In this document: positions 10,166 through 16,750 of the stretch, in pieces
How the letters are laid out: each line of letters opens with the position of its first letter
Numbering within the stretch: position 1 is the first letter of the stretch
NCBI GenBank assembly: GCA_009781625.1
Contig: WQVI01000001.1
Coordinates: 1 to 53,649, forward strand
DNA from: Defluviitaleaceae bacterium
GTDB lineage: Bacteria > Bacillota > Clostridia > Lachnospirales > WRAX01
DNA length: 53,649 nt
Direction of reading: 5' to 3'
Notes under the pieces: generated by a model
What the model was told of the DNA's origin: nothing
Seen by the model: the letters and a program-made list of their open reading frames with translations, nothing else
The model's database searches: none
Made by a program: the position numbers and the translations under genes

Positions 10166-10317
10166 AGGCAGCCCCCTAAGTTACGGTAGTATAACTATGG
10201 TTAATAAAAATATTTCCCGACACTTAATATAATTATACTGCATTCTTTTTAAATTTCAAGACCTTTTGGCAGCTATAAGAAAATTTAATATATCGTAACA
10301 TTTTTAGCATATTTCTC

Positions 10318-10346
10318 TTGACATGCGCCACCAAACATGATAATAT
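10318..10346 (+). promoter_or_regulatory. Sigma-A type promoter upstream of rpmG-secE-nusG
   Basis: TTGACA, 17-nt spacer, TAATAT. Confidence 0.5.
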
Positions 10347-10418
10347 TATCTCGTGCCAAAAATTATGGCTTTTTTTAATATGTTCTTGAAATCAATTTTA
10401 CTACAATGAGGTGGAGAA

Positions 10419-10568
10419 ATGAGAACCAAAATCACACTAGCTTGTACAGAGTGCAAACAGCGCAATTACGAAACAAAAAAAGAGCGTAAAAACCACCCTG
10501 ATAGGATGGAATTTAAAAAACATTGCAAATTTTGCAACAAGCACACACCACACAGAGAAACCAGATAA
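10419..10568 (+). CDS. rpmG: 50S ribosomal protein L33 (not in the supplied ORF track; below the size cut-off)
   Basis: Manual translation [51 protein letters not shown] is ggtggag. Canonical position before secE. Confidence 0.9.
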
Positions 10569-10571
10569 CTT

Positions 10572-10595
10572 GTAGGGGCGAACTGCGTTCGCCCG
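10572..10595 (+). repeat. REP hairpin, type 1 (GTAGGGGCGAAC-N-GTTCGCCCG)
   Basis: gtaggggcgaactgcgttcgcccg lies between rpmG and secE. It is the same motif as the copies around RAYT-1. Confidence 0.8.
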
Positions 10596-10615
10596 ATTAA
10601 AAAGGACGTGAAAAA

Positions 10616-10834
10616 ATGGAAGAAAAGAAAAAAGAAGGCCGTTTTTCAGAATGGTTTAGCGGCATCATAGGCGAATTTAAGCGCATAACCTGGCCGGACC
10701 GTAAAACCCTTGTTAAAATGACTGTTACCGTTATCATCACAAGCGGCATCTTCGGCGGCATTATTGTAGCCTACGATTTTGTTTTAGGTGCCGGATACAA
10801 CGGGCTTGTTGGGCTTGTTGACATGCTTAGATAG
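10616..10834 (+). CDS. secE: Preprotein translocase subunit SecE
   Basis: 72 aa with EFKRITWPDRKTL followed by a single TM helix. rpmG-secE-nusG synteny. Confidence 0.9.
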   Translation: MEEKKKEGRFSEWFSGIIGEFKRITWPDRKTLVKMTVTVIITSGIFGGIIVAYDFVLGAGYNGLVGLVDMLR

Positions 10835-10852
10835 AACGGAATGAGGTGAAAT

Positions 10853-11380
10853 ATGACAGAAGTTGCCCCAAGGTGGTATGTGGTACACACCTATTCCGGC
10901 TATGAAAACAAGGTAAAGGCAAATTTGGAAAAGATTATCGAAAACAGGGGTATGCAGGAGCAAATTCTTGAGGTTTCCGTCCCAATTCAAAACGTAGTTG
11001 AAGTTAAAAACGGCGTGAAGAAGACGGTGGCCAAAAAGGTTTTTCCCGGCTATGTCCTCGTTTTTATGCATATGAATGACGAAACATGGTATGTCGTGCG
11101 TAACACCCGCGGCGTTACCAGCTTTGTGGGTCCCGGCAGCAAGCCCGTGCCCCTTTCTGAAGACGAAATACGCTTCATGGGCCTTATTGAGGACCTCGAA
11201 GAGGTGATAGATCTTGACGTGGGCGATGCCGTGCGTATTACAACAGGGCCTTTTGAGGATTCTGTCGGTACGGTAACAGAAGTAAACCAAGCCCGCAAGA
11301 TGGTTGTTGTTTCTCTAACAATTTTTGGCAGAGAAACACCGGTTGAACTGGATTATATACAAATTGAAAAAATGGGTTAA
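10853..11380 (+). CDS. nusG: Transcription termination/antitermination protein NusG
   Basis: WYVVHTYSGYENKVK N-terminus and a KOW region. Synteny supports the call. Confidence 0.95.
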   Translation: MTEVAPRWYVVHTYSGYENKVKANLEKIIENRGMQEQILEVSVPIQNVVEVKNGVKKTVAKKVFPGYVLVFMHMNDETWYVVRNTRGVTSFVGPGSKPVPLSEDEIRFMGLIEDLEEVIDLDVGDAVRITTGPFEDSVGTVTEVNQARKMVVVSLTIFGRETPVELDYIQIEKMG

Positions 11381-11383
11381 TAC

Positions 11384-11412
11384 GTGGGAGGGCATGTGCC
11401 CGATATTACCAC
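11384..11412 (+). promoter_or_regulatory. Hairpin gtgggagggcatgtgcccgatattaccac upstream of rplK; candidate L1-binding autoregulatory leader
   Basis: Position immediately 5' of the rplK SD. A second copy with the same architecture precedes rplA at 14061-14089. Confidence 0.4.
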
Positions 11413-11429
11413 TTTAGGAGGAATATTTT

Positions 11430-11855
11430 ATGGCAAAAAAAGTAACAGGCTTAATTAAATTTCAAATACCTGCGGGTAAAGCCACACCGGCACCGCCTGT
11501 TGGCCCGGCACTTGGCCAACACGGCGTAAACCTGATGGGCTTTTGTAAAGAATTTAACGAGCGTACATCAAGACAAGCGGGCCTTATCATTCCCGTTGTT
11601 ATCACAGTTTACGCCGACAAAAGCTTCACCTTCATCACCAAAACACCGCCTGCGCCTGTTTTGTTGAAAAAAGCAGCGGGCTTGGAAAAAGCCAGCGGCG
11701 TGCCTAACAAAGAAAAAGTTGGCACAGTGACAGAAGCTCAAGTGAAAGAAATTGCGGAAACAAAAATGGCCGACCTTAACGCTGCCAGCCTAGAAACTGC
11801 CATGAGCATGATAAAAGGTACGGCGCGTAGCATGGGCCTTACAGTAGAAGGCTAA
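11430..11855 (+). CDS. rplK: 50S ribosomal protein L11
   Basis: [34 protein letters not shown] is canonical L11. Confidence 0.97.
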
Positions 11856-11868
11856 GGAGGAATATTTT

Positions 11869-11949
11869 ATGAAGAACTTCTTACAATTTGCAATTCCATT
11901 TGTAATTGCTTTCGTTGCGGTTATAATAATTATGCAAGTTTTGTTCTAG
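11869..11949 (+). CDS. 26-codon hydrophobic micro-ORF (MKNFLQFAIPFVIAFVAVIIIMQVLF)
   Basis: Its SD plus spacer taaggaggaatattttATG repeats the rplK SD region. Its stop lies 3 nt before the ATG of the first paralog, which has no SD of its own. Confidence 0.4.
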   Translation: MKNFLQFAIPFVIAFVAVIIIMQVLF

Positions 11950-11952
11950 ACC

Positions 11953-12717
11953 ATGCATGATGATTTGCCCACAGAAAATCAACGAGAATTGCAGCTGCTG
12001 CAAGAAAAAGCCAATAGAGCAGACCAGCTTCAAGACTTGTTGCTTAAATTAGACCGCAAGGCACAATGGCTGAGAGGGGCAACAATTGCTCTAAGCATAA
12101 TAGTCTTAATAGGCGGTCTGGCTGCGTTTCGCGCAAACCACTATAACATTGTGCTTGCGCTAAACGGCATAACAGAAACCCACCGCCTAGGCGAGGATGT
12201 CGTAGTTACATTTGATGACCGTTGGTTTGGCAATAACAACGCAATGCGCTCGATACTTTGGCAAGAAGGCGATGAGATGGGCAATTTTGTTTCGTTGCGC
12301 CAAAACAGCTTGGGCTTTTGGTTTATAGCCAGCGAATATGGGGGTGTTTGGCGTACCGCTTCCGGCGGCGGACTTGTCACATGGCCTGTCCCCCTTTGGC
12401 AATTAAACCATTTTGACGACCCGCGATACGGACGCCACCGTCATAATTGGGCGACGATTACCATTCATCAGCGACATCTCGGAACAACTACTTCGATCTC
12501 CCCTTCTTGGGATTTTGGGCGGGTTGCATACTATCACAACACCAACGCAATAGCCCTAATAGAGCTTGATCACTCTCTTTTGCCAGACGGTATAACGGCA
12601 GATATACGGCAATGGGGTTCGTTTTATGTTATACAACTGGACATTGCTATTAGAGATTTTTGGCAACCTGAAATAACGCCATTGATTGAAGATTTGGTCA
12701 GGGATTTTGTTGAATAA
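11953..12717 (+). CDS. Unknown single-pass membrane protein, paralog 1 of 3
   Basis: Charged N-terminus, TM helix ALSIIVLIGGLAAF, then a beta-rich ~190-aa ectodomain. Blocks NGITETHRLGED, YYHNTNAIALIELDHSLLP and VIQLD are shared with the next two ORFs. Confidence 0.7.
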   Translation: MHDDLPTENQRELQLLQEKANRADQLQDLLLKLDRKAQWLRGATIALSIIVLIGGLAAFRANHYNIVLALNGITETHRLGEDVVVTFDDRWFGNNNAMRSILWQEGDEMGNFVSLRQNSLGFWFIASEYGGVWRTASGGGLVTWPVPLWQLNHFDDPRYGRHRHNWATITIHQRHLGTTTSISPSWDFGRVAYYHNTNAIALIELDHSLLPDGITADIRQWGSFYVIQLDIAIRDFWQPEITPLIEDLVRDFVE

Positions 12718-12731
12718 GAAGGTCGTAAGTC

Positions 12732-13394
12732 ATGACAAATGAGCGAGATTTACAAAGGTTGAAGGACGAGGCCGAAAGAGCAGACATTCGCCAGATCGCG
12801 GTGTCTAAATTAGACCGTCAGGTACGATGGCTGAAAAGGGCAGCAATTGCCCTAAGCATAATGGTTTTAATAGGCGGGCCGGCTATGTTTCGCGCAAACC
12901 ACTACAACCTCGTGCTTTCGCTAAACGGCATAACAGAAACCTTTCGCCTGGGCGAAGATGGCACTGTCACCTATGTGGGCCACCTTTTGGGCAACCAAAA
13001 CACAACACGCCTAATATTTTCTCAGCAAGGCAATGAAATGGGCGAATTTGTCCATCTTCGCCGAAACAGTTGGGGCTTTTGGTCAGTTTCCGGCAGAACA
13101 AATTGGCAGGTTGATTCCGGTGGCATTTTAACTACAGAAGTTAACTTTGCTGCGCCAAATTATTTTGATGAACAGTGGGCAGACGTCCCAACTTGGACAT
13201 CAATTGCTTACTATCACAACACCAACGCAATTGCCCTAATTGAAATAGACCATAGCCTTTTGCCTACACATGTCACGGCAAGTCTGCGACAATGGGGCAA
13301 CCATTACATTTTACAACTGGACAATATCGGAAGCTTTCTTGTCCCTGAAATAGAACAAATGATTAACGATATAGTCAAAGATTTTGTTGAATAA
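12732..13394 (+). CDS. Unknown single-pass membrane protein, paralog 2 of 3
   Basis: Same architecture and conserved blocks. 14-nt spacer with SD-like gaagg. Confidence 0.7.
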   Translation: MTNERDLQRLKDEAERADIRQIAVSKLDRQVRWLKRAAIALSIMVLIGGPAMFRANHYNLVLSLNGITETFRLGEDGTVTYVGHLLGNQNTTRLIFSQQGNEMGEFVHLRRNSWGFWSVSGRTNWQVDSGGILTTEVNFAAPNYFDEQWADVPTWTSIAYYHNTNAIALIEIDHSLLPTHVTASLRQWGNHYILQLDNIGSFLVPEIEQMINDIVKDFVE

Positions 13395-13408
13395 GAGGGC
13401 CATAAGCC

Positions 13409-14059
13409 ATGACCCATGACGATTTGACCATAGAGAATAAGGCAGGCCATCTCCAAACTTTGGTGCTTAAATTAGACCGTCAGGCTCGATGGTTGAAAAG
13501 AGCTTTAATCGCTGTTAGTATCATTGTGCTATTGGGTGGATGGTATATGTTTCGCACCAACCATTATTATATTGCACTTGCCATAAATGGCCTTACAGAA
13601 ACCCACAGATTTGGTGACGACGGCACTGTCAACTTTGGCGGCCGCTTTCTGGGCGAGGGCAACACAGTGCGCTTTATATTTTCTCAGCGTGGCGATGACA
13701 TGGGCGAATTTGCGCGGCTTCGTCAAAACAGTTGGGGTTGGTGGTCGGTAGATCCCATATTAAATTGGCGTATAGATTCCGGTGGTATCTTAGTTACTGA
13801 GCGCATCTTTATTTCACCAAATTATTTTGAAGATGAATGGGTGGCGCGTTTTAACAGCTGGAGTTGGGCAGCATATTATCACAATGTAAATGCAACAGCT
13901 TTAATTGAGCTTGACCATAGCCTTCTGCCGGATTATGTTACGGCAACTTTGTATCAAAAGGGCAGAAGCTATGTTATACAACTGGACAATATTGCAATTT
14001 TTCAGTATTATGAGATAGAAGAAATGATAAATAATTTAGTCAGAGATTTTATTGAATAA
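13409..14059 (+). CDS. Unknown single-pass membrane protein, paralog 3 of 3
   Basis: Same architecture and conserved blocks. 14-nt spacer with agaggg. Confidence 0.7.
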   Translation: MTHDDLTIENKAGHLQTLVLKLDRQARWLKRALIAVSIIVLLGGWYMFRTNHYYIALAINGLTETHRFGDDGTVNFGGRFLGEGNTVRFIFSQRGDDMGEFARLRQNSWGWWSVDPILNWRIDSGGILVTERIFISPNYFEDEWVARFNSWSWAAYYHNVNATALIELDHSLLPDYVTATLYQKGRSYVIQLDNIAIFQYYEIEEMINNLVRDFIE

Positions 14060-14060
14060 A

Positions 14061-14089
14061 GTGGGAGGGAGTTTTCCCGCCAACACCAC
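14061..14089 (+). promoter_or_regulatory. Hairpin gtgggagggagttttcccgccaacaccac upstream of rplA; second copy of the L1-leader-like motif
   Basis: Same outer GTGG/CCAC and inner GAGGG/CCCG pairing as 11384-11412, followed by aaggaggaatttt, similar to the rplK SD region. Confidence 0.4.
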
Positions 14090-14104
14090 AAGGAGGAATT
14101 TTAA

Positions 14105-14800
14105 ATGAAAAAAGGTAAAAAGTATCGTGAAAAGGCGGCTTTGATAGACCGTATGATGCAATATGACACCGTTGATGCCATTGATTTGGTGCAAAAGGTT
14201 TCTTATGCAAAATTTGATGAAACCGTTGAGGCCCATGTGCGCCTTGGCGTAGACAGCCGCCATGCTGATCAGCAAGTACGCGGCGCGGTTGTTTTGCCCC
14301 ATGGTACGGGTAAAACCCAGCGCATCTTGGTATTTGCCAAAGGCGACAAGGCCAAAGAGGCCGAAGATGCCGGTGCCGATTTCGTTGGTGCTGAAGAGCT
14401 TATACCAAAAATCCAAAACGAAAACTGGTTTGAATATGATATTATCGTTGCAACCCCTGATATGATGGGTGTTGTAGGCCGCCTTGGTAAGATTTTGGGC
14501 CCGAAAGGCCTTATGCCTAACCCAAAATCTGGCACAGTTACCATGGACATCAAAAAAGCCGTGGACGACATCAAGGCCGGTAAAGTTGAATATCGCCTGG
14601 ACAAAACAAACATTATACACGTGCCTCTGGGCAAGGTGTCTTTCGGCACAGAAAAGCTGGTTGAAAACTTTGAAACGCTGATGTCAGCTATCATCAAAGC
14701 CAAGCCATCCGCCGCAAAGGGACAATACCTGCGCAGCGTCTCCATATCACCTACCATGGGCCCGGGAATTAAAATCAACACAGCCAAGCTTACGTCATAA
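14105..14800 (+). CDS. rplA: 50S ribosomal protein L1
   Basis: [16 protein letters not shown]...[13 protein letters not shown]...ATPDMMG is canonical L1. Confidence 0.97.
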
Positions 14801-15660
14801 TGTGCCCCCCTTTAGGTTTTTTGGGTCACAAGCACAAAATGTCTCCCGATGAGACAAGGGCGTTGGCATGTTGCGCCATTTTGGTGGTGCACAGCGAAGG
14901 TCACAAGGCAGTCATGTTACGCGACTTGCCCAAGCGCAAGGCAGATTACGCAAAGCAAGTGTTGTCGGAAAAATGGGATGTAACGGATTGGGGTAGTAGC
15001 ATAACCTTGCTGGAGAAGCTCTCTAAATCAGAGAATGACAACCCCCTTGTTTCCGAAATTTTCGGCAACATCATCGAAGCTTCCCAATACGAAATTATCC
15101 GTGGCATCTTTACGCCCCTAAAGCAGGACAGCCTTTTGGGTTTGGACATCCCAAACTATTTTGGCCACCTGTGGAAGGTCTCAACAAACAAGGCCAATAG
15201 CGACATCGCCGCCTTTATGGATTTTTTGCACGGCGCGGAAGATGCAAACAAAACCTTCCACGGCATCACGGCATCAATGTTGCTAAATCGTATAAACAGC
15301 TGCATTTCAGGCTACGAGCAAGCCATGCGCTCTCTTACCGTTTCTGGCTATACCAGAGAGGAATTGACATCTATAAGCAATTTTTCTGCTTGGGATTTAG
15401 GCCGTTGCGGCTACATCGCAAAACTGGCCGCCACCGCGGGCTTCATAGATAATGCAACAGCATATCAATATATGATGACCGTCGGAAGCAGTGCTTACAA
15501 GACATATCGAAGCTGGAGACAGTTTTTAGCGGCGTATTTTATCGGACATAGTATCATTGACGGCAATGCCAAAGGCATCGAAGCCTTTGGCGAAACCATA
15601 TCCTATCTACTAAAAGATAAAAAAAGCCCATATCAAAAATTTCCACTAAAATTTGCATAA
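14800..15660 (+). CDS. DUF1266 domain protein
   Basis: AWDLGRCGYIAKLAATAGFIDNATAYQYMM...SWRQFLAAYFIGHS resembles DUF1266. The start is either ATG overlapping the rplA TAA (14800) or ATG 14839. Confidence 0.6.
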   Translation: MCPPLGFLGHKHKMSPDETRALACCAILVVHSEGHKAVMLRDLPKRKADYAKQVLSEKWDVTDWGSSITLLEKLSKSENDNPLVSEIFGNIIEASQYEIIRGIFTPLKQDSLLGLDIPNYFGHLWKVSTNKANSDIAAFMDFLHGAEDANKTFHGITASMLLNRINSCISGYEQAMRSLTVSGYTREELTSISNFSAWDLGRCGYIAKLAATAGFIDNATAYQYMMTVGSSAYKTYRSWRQFLAAYFIGHSIIDGNAKGIEAFGETISYLLKDKKSPYQKFPLKFA

Positions 15661-15661
15661 C

Positions 15662-15687
15662 AAATGCCCCCAAACGTTGGGGGCATT
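15662..15687 (+). terminator. Intrinsic terminator after the DUF1266 gene
   Basis: aaatgccccca-aacg-ttgggggcatt followed by gtgttta. Confidence 0.7.
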
Positions 15688-15701
15688 GTGTTTATCCGTT
15701 G

Positions 15702-16079
15702 CTTATACTAATCTAAGTTATACCAATATCCCACCAAAGCAGTAGCAAAAACTTGTCTTTTTGCACCAAGGACATCGTCAGCTTCTCCTTACGTGCCCTT
15801 ATACTAATCTAAGTTAAAAATCATTGAAAGCTGCCCTGCAAAACTACTTGAATCGCTGTAGATTTCGCAGCTTGCTTTCAATGTTTTTAACGTAAGATTA
15901 GTATTAGGCACGCCGCGTCGTCGCTTCCTTGCCTTGATGCAAAAATCCTGCGTTTTTCTGTTACTGTTTTGGTGGGATATTGGTATAAAAATCATTGAAA
16001 GACTGCGCCGCGAAACGACTTGAAGCGTTGTCGCTTTCGCGGCTTGTTTTCAACGTTTTTAACGTAAGATTAGTATTAC
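15702..16079. repeat. Mosaic repeat field, order A-B-A-C1-A'-B'-C2-A'
   Basis: A (cttatactaatctaagtta) lies at 15702 and 15798; its inverted form (taacgtaagattagtatta) lies at 15888 and 16060. B (15721-15797) is an inverted copy of B' (15907-15985). C1 (15816-15888) and C2 (15986-16060) are direct copies of a ~72-nt hairpin. Confidence 0.8.
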
Positions 16080-16750
16080 TTGCTTTCAAGCTCTGCCAGA
16101 GCAGTCTCCATAAATCCAATAACTTCCTTCGTATGCGGCTCGCAATGCCCTGACGCATAAATCTCAAAATCATATTGCTTATAGGCTTCAATTATATTAC
16201 AAAAGCTTACAGTATCTTCCTGCTTCCCCCAATAATACGCCTTCCCGTCTGCCACCCCAAAGTTGTCCCCGGCGTGCAAAACCTTGTCCACAGCATCATA
16301 CACGGTGATGCTATCCTCTGTATGCCCGGGCGTATGGAAAATTGTGATGCCATCTTCCGGAAAATGCATAACGCCCTCAAACAGCAAATTTGGCGGAAAT
16401 TTGCGCACCTCGCCGGTAAAATATTGGCCAGCATCCTTAGCCCGTTGCACCTGCATATCCCAATTTTTCTCCATAAGTTCATAACAAAGCTTGTGGGCCA
16501 CTATCGTGCTGCCTTCAAGCACCCAATTGCCCCCGGTATGGTCCCAATCGTGATGGGTATTAATAACAACTATTGGCTTTGGGTCATCCCCAATATATTC
16601 CAGCATAGCATCAACACAGTCTCGCCCAATGCCGGTATCAATGATAAAATTATGCTTAACACCAAGTATAACACCCATATACACATCAGCATCGGCATTT
16701 TCCTTTGTGCAAAACAAAATATTGCGGTCACTTATTTTCTTTATCTGCAT
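16076..16750 (-). CDS. MBL-fold metallo-hydrolase
   Basis: VINTHHDWDHTGGN (HxHxDH motif), plus later HTPGHT and SGH. Confidence 0.85.
   Translation of the reverse strand: MQIKKISDRNILFCTKENADADVYMGVILGVKHNFIIDTGIGRDCVDAMLEYIGDDPKPIVVINTHHDWDHTGGNWVLEGSTIVAHKLCYELMEKNWDMQVQRAKDAGQYFTGEVRKFPPNLLFEGVMHFPEDGITIFHTPGHTEDSITVYDAVDKVLHAGDNFGVADGKAYYWGKQEDTVSFCNIIEAYKQYDFEIYASGHCEPHTKEVIGFMETALAELESK

Follow-up and report, generated by a model that had tools for sequence, protein, structure and literature searches.

Between rplK and rplA, the genes for ribosomal proteins L11 and L1, a Defluviitaleaceae bacterium carries three tandem genes for predicted single-pass membrane proteins of a family that we call X. 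The stretch of DNA analysed, hereafter the window, comprises positions 1 to 53,649 of contig WQVI01000001.1 (assembly GCA_009781625.1, a metagenome-assembled genome); its three X genes are P1, P2 and P3, and a 26-codon hydrophobic open reading frame (ORF), the micro-ORF, precedes them. The insertion is a feature of a clade, and the triplication and the micro-ORF alone are specific to the window. On balance, we consider it probable that the X genes are lineage-specific passengers that became fixed in the L11-L1 operon of an uncultured Defluviitaleaceae clade, and, with lower confidence, that they encode extracytoplasmic or envelope-associated proteins whose supply is tied to growth.

That the insertion is real follows from related genomes that carry the same arrangement. 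It is present in at least five other metagenomic genomes, at loci L001/L007, L004/L008, L005, L006 and L003. L001 and L007 hold the same gene (L007 is a Joint Genome Institute contig), and L004 and L008 likewise form one X locus pair; the corresponding homologues are P0004 (L001/L007), P0005 (L003), P0006 (L004/L008), P0007 (L005) and P0008 (L006). Gene order is secE-nusG-rplK-X-rplA-DUF1266-rplJ-rplL in L001 (a 215-kb contig) and L007 and secE-nusG-rplK-X-rplA-DUF1266 in L004/L008, and X follows rplK in L005 and L006. Synteny between L001 and the window extends upstream, with matching amidohydrolase, FTCD_C, glyoxalase and polysaccharide deacetylase genes, and on every contig that reaches beyond rplA (L001/L007, L004/L008) the next gene is DUF1266. 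The related metagenome samples (ERZ27257297, Ga0131853, 3300009826) may come from termite guts.

The number of X copies varies from one in the relatives to at least two in L003 and three in the window. On L003, an 865-nt contig, the part of an X copy that encodes its C-terminus is followed by P0005 and by the leader and start of rplA, so tandem copies exist outside the window too. L11, L1 and NusG are 84-95% identical between these genomes, and X just 38-44%. The three copies in the window are closer to one another than to any orthologue, which argues for a local triplication; the ancestral state would have been one X copy directly after rplK. In L005 (1412-1566) and L006 (964-1118), X is followed by the L1-like motif described below with an altered 3' strand (GAUAUCAC), and then by an ORF that begins with a DUF433 domain (Pfam E 1.4e-7) at the position expected for rplA, where the contigs end. 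The rplK-rplA junction seems to collect further accessory genes.

In the window, rplK and rplA lie 2249 nt apart (11856-14104), and Pfam confirms both flanking genes (Table 1). A first-pass annotation, made from the sequence without database searches, had reported a separation of about 2.25 kb filled by the micro-ORF and by three paralogs of 254, 220 and 216 aa with conserved 14-nt spacers, and the ORF map and raw sequence bear out all of its descriptive statements on coordinates and features. The paralogs are 56-58% identical pairwise, with 96 invariant alignment columns. Both spacers between them are 14 nt long and identical at 10 of 14 positions, and each contains a GAAGG or GAGGG element resembling a Shine-Dalgarno (SD) sequence. 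Spacers across the whole rplK-to-rplA unit measure 3-45 nt, G+C content is flat across the locus (0.42-0.50) and equal to that of the flanks, and L11 and the three paralogs carry successive NCBI accession numbers.

Table 1. Features of the rplK-rplA region of the window.
Feature	Position	Strand	Remarks
rpmG	10419-10568	+	ORF map
secE	10616-10834	+	ORF map
nusG	10853-11380	+	ORF map; NusG confirmed by Pfam
L1-binding-site-like mRNA motif 1	11384-11412	+	GUGGGAG-hairpin-GAUAUUACCAC; 3 nt 5' of rplK SD
rplK (ribosomal protein L11)	11430-11855	+	Pfam PF03946 and PF00298 (N and C domains; E 8e-30 and 6e-29); NCBI MCL2375768.1
17-nt exact copy of rplK SD, spacer and ATG	11855-11871	+	overlaps rplK stop codon
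micro-ORF, 26 codons, hydrophobic	11869-11949	+	window-specific; not annotated by NCBI; in frame with paralog 1
X paralog 1 (P1), 254 aa, FWC76_00095	11953-12717	+	SD absent; loop insertions at about nt 12421-12522
X paralog 2 (P2), 220 aa, FWC76_00100	12732-13394	+	SD-like GAAGG in 14-nt spacer
X paralog 3 (P3), 216 aa, FWC76_00105, MCL2375771.1	13409-14059	+	SD-like GAGGG in 14-nt spacer
L1-binding-site-like mRNA motif 2	14061-14089	+	GUGGGAG-hairpin-GCCAACACCAC; begins 1 nt past P3 stop
AAGGAGG containing rplA SD	14090-14096	+	directly abuts end of motif 2
rplA (ribosomal protein L1)	14105-14800	+	Pfam PF00687, E 4e-73
DUF1266 gene, 286 aa	14800-15660	+	Pfam PF06889, E 1e-21; start overlaps rplA stop (TAATG)
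Intrinsic-terminator-like hairpin, 11-bp stem	15663-15687	+	first on the + strand after rplK

The adjacency of rplK and rplA ranks among the most conserved in bacteria and serves as a textbook example of translational coupling with autogenous control. The first-pass annotation took the two genes to be normally adjacent and co-translated, a premise that is centred on E. coli: L1-binding mRNA sites precede both rplK and rplA in more than 40% of Firmicutes (Fu et al. 2013, PMC3616713). Such dual sites have been validated in Firmicutes, and the binding motif is a stem of 6-12 bp, in which an internal bulge holds G-A and an unpaired A (PMC3616713).

Two motifs of comparable design occur in the window, one before rplK and one after P3. 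They consist of four outer and 4-8 inner base pairs; the 5' side bears a GA bulge, and the 3' side an A-rich bulge of 7 nt. The motif before rplK is also found in L001, L004 and L005, and that after the last X gene in L001, L003, L004, L005 and L006, with a compensatory hairpin. Across ten motif instances, 97.5% of cells are paired (82.6% in shuffles), and covariation is 0.508, as against 0.207 in shuffles, none of 500 of which scored as high. Four of the pairs show compensatory changes; a single U-A pair of the outer helix GUGG/CCAC is swapped to C-G, and the variation of the inner hairpin is compensatory. The mRNA motifs share the strands GUGGGAG and (A/U)ACCAC with the L1 stalk of 23S rRNA as compared in E. 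coli only (GUGGGAG at nt 2121-2127 and AUACCAC at nt 2171-2177), which points to rRNA mimics of the L1 site. By position, structure and rRNA mimicry, both motifs qualify as putative L1-binding autoregulatory operators. Rfam 15 contains no family that reaches its gathering threshold in the 53.6-kb window (no tRNA, riboswitch or ribosomal-leader model), and at E ≤ 10 it returns chance-level matches only, with no L1-leader model, in 10200-15900. Folding of the rplA leader as a single sequence does not reproduce the comparative structure. Given the second L1-like site at 14061-14089, the insert would leave L1 control of rplA unbroken. The first-pass annotation overstated the breach of L11-L1 coupling, and it missed the clade-wide conservation, the DUF1266 gene and the second L1 operator.

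The X genes are probably embedded in the L11-L1 transcription unit and co-transcribed with rplK and rplA. No terminator-like site is predicted on the + strand between these genes in the window; the first lies past the DUF1266 gene, so the terminator after rplK that could have counted against shared expression is absent from the predictions. In L004/L008, the start of X overlaps the rplK stop codon (TAATG), and in L001 X begins with a GTG that lies 9 nt past the rplK stop and has no SD; the X genes of L005 and L006 have their own GAGGAAGG or GAGGAAAG. A start that overlaps or abuts the rplK stop would place X in an rplK-coupled slot, subject to co-repression by L1 at operator 1.

We propose the following scheme. 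X would be transcribed together with rplK and rplA from a position between two L1 operators of a kind common in Firmicutes. Operator 1, before rplK, would control rplK and, in the relatives where X starts overlap or lie 9 nt past the rplK stop, X as well. Operator 2, which directly follows the last X stop codon and borders on the SD of rplA, would keep rplA under independent L1 feedback, and the DUF1266 gene, coupled to the rplA stop, would likewise fall under operator 2. The site may tolerate inserted genes because this dual-operator layout was already in place.

For P1, the micro-ORF may serve as a relay, in which ribosomes load on a copied rplK site and reinitiate 3 nt downstream. At 11855-11871, the 17-nt aggaggaatattttatg duplicates without mismatch the ribosome-binding site of rplK (11416-11432; BLAST E 8e-4, ~200 kb). 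An AGGAGG lies 8 nt before the ATG of the micro-ORF, whose TAG is followed by 3 nt and then by the ATG of P1, which has no SD. The peptide (MKNFLQFAIPFVIAFVAVIIIMQVLF, 26 aa) has a mean Kyte-Doolittle hydropathy of 3.15 and is of transmembrane (TM) length. The hydrophobic character of the frame, its copied ribosome-binding site and its distance to an SD-less P1 had all been reported in the first-pass annotation, and they hold in the raw sequence. Because of the perfect SD and the 3-nt stop-to-start distance to SD-less P1, we judge that the micro-ORF is likely translated and acts as a relay for P1; a function for the peptide itself is unsupported.

The micro-ORF starts 84 nt upstream of P1 in the same frame, parted from it by the TAG and the codon ACC (11869-11955), and read-through, or a nonsense mutation of recent date, would yield a two-TM fusion with P1. 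Such a fusion is not ancestral, since the orthologues share with P1 a conserved N-terminus, MHDD. Descent of the micro-ORF from a fourth paralog or from rplK was considered and rejected, as similarity is limited to the ribosome-binding site.

Could the micro-ORF instead be a chance frame in a young, window-specific spacer, with a functionless peptide and with P1 translated poorly or by ribosomes drifting from rplK? We take this to be a serious possibility, if not the one we prefer. The micro-ORF has no counterpart in L001, L004, L005 and L006, where X starts at the rplK stop or at most 22 nt downstream; beyond the duplicated ribosome-binding site, it has no DNA or peptide similarity, and its region shows no unusual RNA fold. 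Its sequence is in no protein collection, has no Pfam match and is unannotated at NCBI. These observations fit a chance frame well, but such a frame would not be expected to have a perfect AGGAGG with an 8-nt spacer and 17 nt of identity with the rplK site, to end 3 nt before an SD-less gene in the classic geometry of termination-reinitiation, or to encode a clean hydrophobic segment of TM length.

The X genes themselves are real coding genes. Pairwise ratios of nonsynonymous to synonymous substitution rates (dN/dS) among the window paralogs and five orthologues are 0.15-0.50, indicating purifying selection, and homologues occur in other genomes. These values below 1, the homologues and the confident AlphaFold model obtained from their alignment led us to reject a reading of X as pseudogenes or artefacts. 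Each paralog has one hydrophobic helix of ~19 residues (a single window each, Kyte-Doolittle mean 1.7-2.0), with 4-5 K/R on its N-side and none on its C-side. From this K/R-rich N-flank, X is predicted to be a bitopic membrane protein with its N-terminus inside and its C-terminus outside. In our scheme, an extracytoplasmic ectodomain of ~150-190 aa would follow a short charged cytoplasmic helix and one TM helix.

AlphaFold, given a 37-sequence family alignment, models P2 with a predicted local distance difference test (pLDDT) score of 91.9 and a predicted template modelling score of 0.79; from the three paralogs alone, pLDDT is 35. The model has a continuous helix at residues 3-64, which spans the cytoplasmic segment and the TM helix, then eight beta strands and a C-terminal helix. 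The extra residues of P1 (~157-189, nt 12421-12522) are located in a variable loop. No Foldseek match to the model reaches E < 0.001 in PDB (best E 0.096, TM-score 0.20) or in BFVD (best E 0.05), hmmsearch of the family profile against PDB sequences returns no match at E ≤ 10, and Pfam, NCBIfam, PHROG and PADLOC contain no family match for any of the three paralogs. The picture drawn in the first-pass annotation, of a charged N-terminus, one TM helix and a beta-rich ectodomain, with an insertion in the first paralog and no recognised family, is upheld; the fold check it proposed gave a confident model with no significant PDB or BFVD match, and the profile searches assign the domain to no known family.

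X is a real but rare family without described relatives. An exhaustive profile search of 1.84 billion cluster-representative proteins yielded 42 clusters at E ≤ 1e-3, five of which, apart from the window's own proteins, fall below E 1e-30 (P0004-P0008). Word-indexed searches that started from P2 or from a 37-sequence profile yielded little beyond self matches, and the family surfaced solely in the exhaustive profile search. Pattern scans for the close and mid-distance subfamilies found no X in 185,579 species-representative genomes, and tblastn found none in phage genomes and plasmids. Family proteins are 180-235 aa long with a common layout, and have the motifs N-S/H-Y, R-V/I-I-F-S, L-R-x-N-x-L-G-F-W, S-G-G, Y-Y/F-H/N-N-x-N-A-x-x-x-I and L-P-x-x-V-x-x-x-x-x-Q-x-G-x-x-Y. 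The conserved part is the ectodomain. Short homologues consist of a signal anchor and the ectodomain, without a cytoplasmic segment, and long members have a conserved charged cytoplasmic helix. No Pfam family is common to more than one of 43 X homologues at E ≤ 0.1.

Whether the family is tied to rplK and rplA throughout, a question raised by the first-pass annotation, can be answered in part: the linkage holds in the close relatives and does not extend to the distant homologues, the majority of which have neither DUF1266 nor ribosomal genes in their vicinity. A TM-anchored DUF1266 protein of 580 aa is encoded 49 nt upstream of P0009, in a neighbourhood that contains no ribosomal genes. Upstream of both P0018 and P0021 is a gene for a ~350-aa secreted protein; the two versions share 28% identity, and neither matches a Pfam family. 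P0041 comes after genes for an extracytoplasmic function (ECF) sigma factor, for a DUF4367 protein and for a secreted protein of 86 aa, and P0013 precedes genes for Wzy_C and Cu_amine_oxidN1 proteins. P0010 belongs to a polA-coaE-SLT cluster, which includes an SLT transglycosylase, and overlaps the polA start.

Further details of these loci deserve mention. In L012-L017 (e.g., L012 2017-3063), a short X branch is consistently preceded by the ~350-aa signal-peptide protein, which looks like a second conserved partner of X. In L009 (5001-8572), P0010 ends 4 nt inside the polA start on the same strand (5669 versus 5672), and genes for a STAND-like NTPase and a TPR protein are divergent and upstream of P0010. 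The upstream partners of distant X homologues were checked as possible DUF1266 relatives, and this was ruled out.

What, then, might X proteins do? We suggest, with low confidence, that X is an extracytoplasmic, cell-envelope-associated protein. An envelope role is favoured because the ectodomain is the conserved part and because short members do without the cytoplasmic segment. Several neighbours of distant homologues are suggestive of the envelope, namely the ~350-aa secreted protein, the ECF sigma factor with DUF4367, Wzy_C with Cu_amine_oxidN1, and the SLT transglycosylase. The rapid divergence of X and its amplification in tandem suggest that it is exposed at the surface, in a diversifying role. 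A function as anti-sigma factor was rejected: there is no zf-HC2- or RskA-type match and no sigma gene near X in the window, and a single distant homologue lies near an ECF sigma factor, at a locus with a DUF4367 protein of its own.

Several observations weigh against the reading of X as growth-linked envelope passengers. The envelope assignment is soft because the neighbourhoods of distant homologues are heterogeneous, and PDB, BFVD and PDB-sequence profile searches give no structural or sequence analogue of X. Co-transcription and coupling are deduced from sequence alone, and L1 binding to both motifs is a prediction. There are promoter-like hexamers inside the insert, at a frequency not above that of shuffled sequence. 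The codon usage of P1 and P2 is within background; P3 alone resembles ribosomal genes, above all 39 background genes. Because bias is weak in this genome, codon usage does not settle the expression level of X. The micro-ORF has no homologue, being absent from a 15-billion-protein collection and from the NCBI annotation. Expression at the level of ribosomal proteins, which the first-pass annotation read from the location, thus goes beyond the evidence: the SDs of P2 and P3 are weak, P1 has none, and codon usage is intermediate.

It is less likely that X is simply a hitchhiker, a dispensable or selfish accessory gene in a permissive site between L1 operators, whose position says nothing of its function. 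The rarity and patchiness of the family are as such a gene would predict, as are the copy number (1 to at least 2 to 3), the much faster evolution of X than of its neighbour genes, and the DUF433 gene that follows X and the L1-like motif in L005 and L006 where rplA is expected. Yet X has stayed in one slot in genomes whose L11 and L1 differ by 5-16%, its dN/dS is well below 1, and its translational coupling signals are conserved. No transposase, integrase, recombinase or flanking repeats are found among the neighbours of X in the window, G+C equals that of the flanks, and there is no phage or plasmid match. The tblastn searches, the G+C content and the lack of a nearby recombinase led us to reject cargo of a mobile element, phage or plasmid, and cargo of a defence system or prophage was rejected in the absence of any PADLOC, PHROG, phage or plasmid match.

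The product of the DUF1266 gene (14800-15660) scores 78.3 bits against the DUF1266 model (PF06889), far above the gathering cutoff of 27. NCBI predicts 248 aa and other gene callers 286 aa, with 14800-14916 in question; the 286-aa form is favoured by conservation from residue 7 (L001/L007, L004/L008) and by the TAATG overlap with the rplA stop. We know of no function for the DUF1266 family (E. coli YbeR/YbeU type). The proximity of X and DUF1266 suggests itself as the most intriguing lead, and outside the clade it rests on one organism (P0009). There, in L010/L011 (3209-5687), the 580-aa protein has N-terminal TM helices and a C-terminal DUF1266 and is encoded immediately 5' of P0009, at a locus that adjoins glycine reductase genes, far from ribosomal genes.

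X and DUF1266 might form a two-part module tied to the ribosome or translation, which could anchor ribosomes or the L11/L1 region to the membrane or report the state of the envelope to ribosome synthesis; coupling of X to rplK and of DUF1266 to rplA would then set their stoichiometry. Both genes keep their exact slots in genomes in which X has diverged to 38-44% identity, the pairing recurs outside ribosomal genes 49 nt upstream of P0009, and long X members have a conserved charged cytoplasmic helix. We nevertheless find such a module improbable, as the core that is conserved in the family lies outside the cytoplasm, a cytoplasmic segment is missing altogether from many homologues, the surroundings of most distant homologues include neither DUF1266 nor ribosomal genes, and the link outside the clade comes from one organism. 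A bolder form, in which X and DUF1266 make up a membrane-linked module slaved stoichiometrically to L11/L1, a link from envelope or membrane to ribosome in which the X ectodomain is a new fold, is more doubtful still.

Beyond the DUF1266 terminator, positions 15690-16080 are ~400 nt of non-coding DNA packed with repeats, which include a 76-nt direct repeat (15831-15906 and 16003-16078; 86% identical), exact repeats of 19 and 16 nt, and inverted repeats of 34-35 nt. In L001/L007, rplJ and rplL come after DUF1266; both are missing from the window, where the repeat stretch is followed by an MBL-fold gene on the minus strand, uvrB, a GNAT gene, ygjV and uvrA. The repeat stretch looks like a rearrangement breakpoint.

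If growth-linked passengers they are, the X genes make this locus a natural experiment, in which the Firmicute dual-operator layout lets foreign genes settle without breaking L1 feedback, and in which the first inserted gene occupies the rplK-coupled slot held by rplA in E. coli. X is a rare, confidently foldable membrane-protein family without recognisable relatives and is linked to DUF1266. Should it be true that its expression tracks ribosome synthesis, X may be among the most abundant envelope proteins of these presumed gut symbionts.

Passenger genes in ribosomal protein operons are well known: the spc operon contains secY, adk and map, and secE and nusG lie upstream of rplK. Like these, X is a membrane or housekeeping type of gene co-transcribed, as predicted, with ribosomal protein genes, and SecE is encoded 600 nt upstream in this very cluster. 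Those passengers are universal and have known functions, whereas X is a rare, fast-evolving family that occupies this site in one clade and is tandemly amplified; the passenger here is an orphan family without recognisable fold relatives. Among known membrane proteins, single-pass extracytoplasmic Firmicute proteins (DUF4367-type anti-sigma, LolA/RseB-like and lipocalin-like) resemble X in their N-in/C-out anchor, beta-rich ectodomain and terminal helix. One distant X homologue lies in an ECF sigma/DUF4367 cluster, and RseB, MucB and lipocalins are among the weak, non-significant Foldseek matches of X (E ≥ 0.1, TM-score ≤ 0.23). X itself lacks an anti-sigma domain and matches no Pfam family. 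The gene that follows rplA clearly belongs to the DUF1266 family (E 1e-21), for which a position coupled to rplA is not mentioned in the literature searched. The closest parallel for the locus as a whole is the dual-operator L11 operon of Firmicutes (PMC3616713), which the window matches in having an rRNA-mimic motif before rplK and another before rplA, each beside an SD, within one predicted transcription unit. The window and its relatives depart from that operon in the 0.6-2.2 kb of non-ribosomal coding sequence (one to three X genes and, in the window, the micro-ORF) between rplK and operator 2, and in the DUF1266 gene coupled to the rplA stop.

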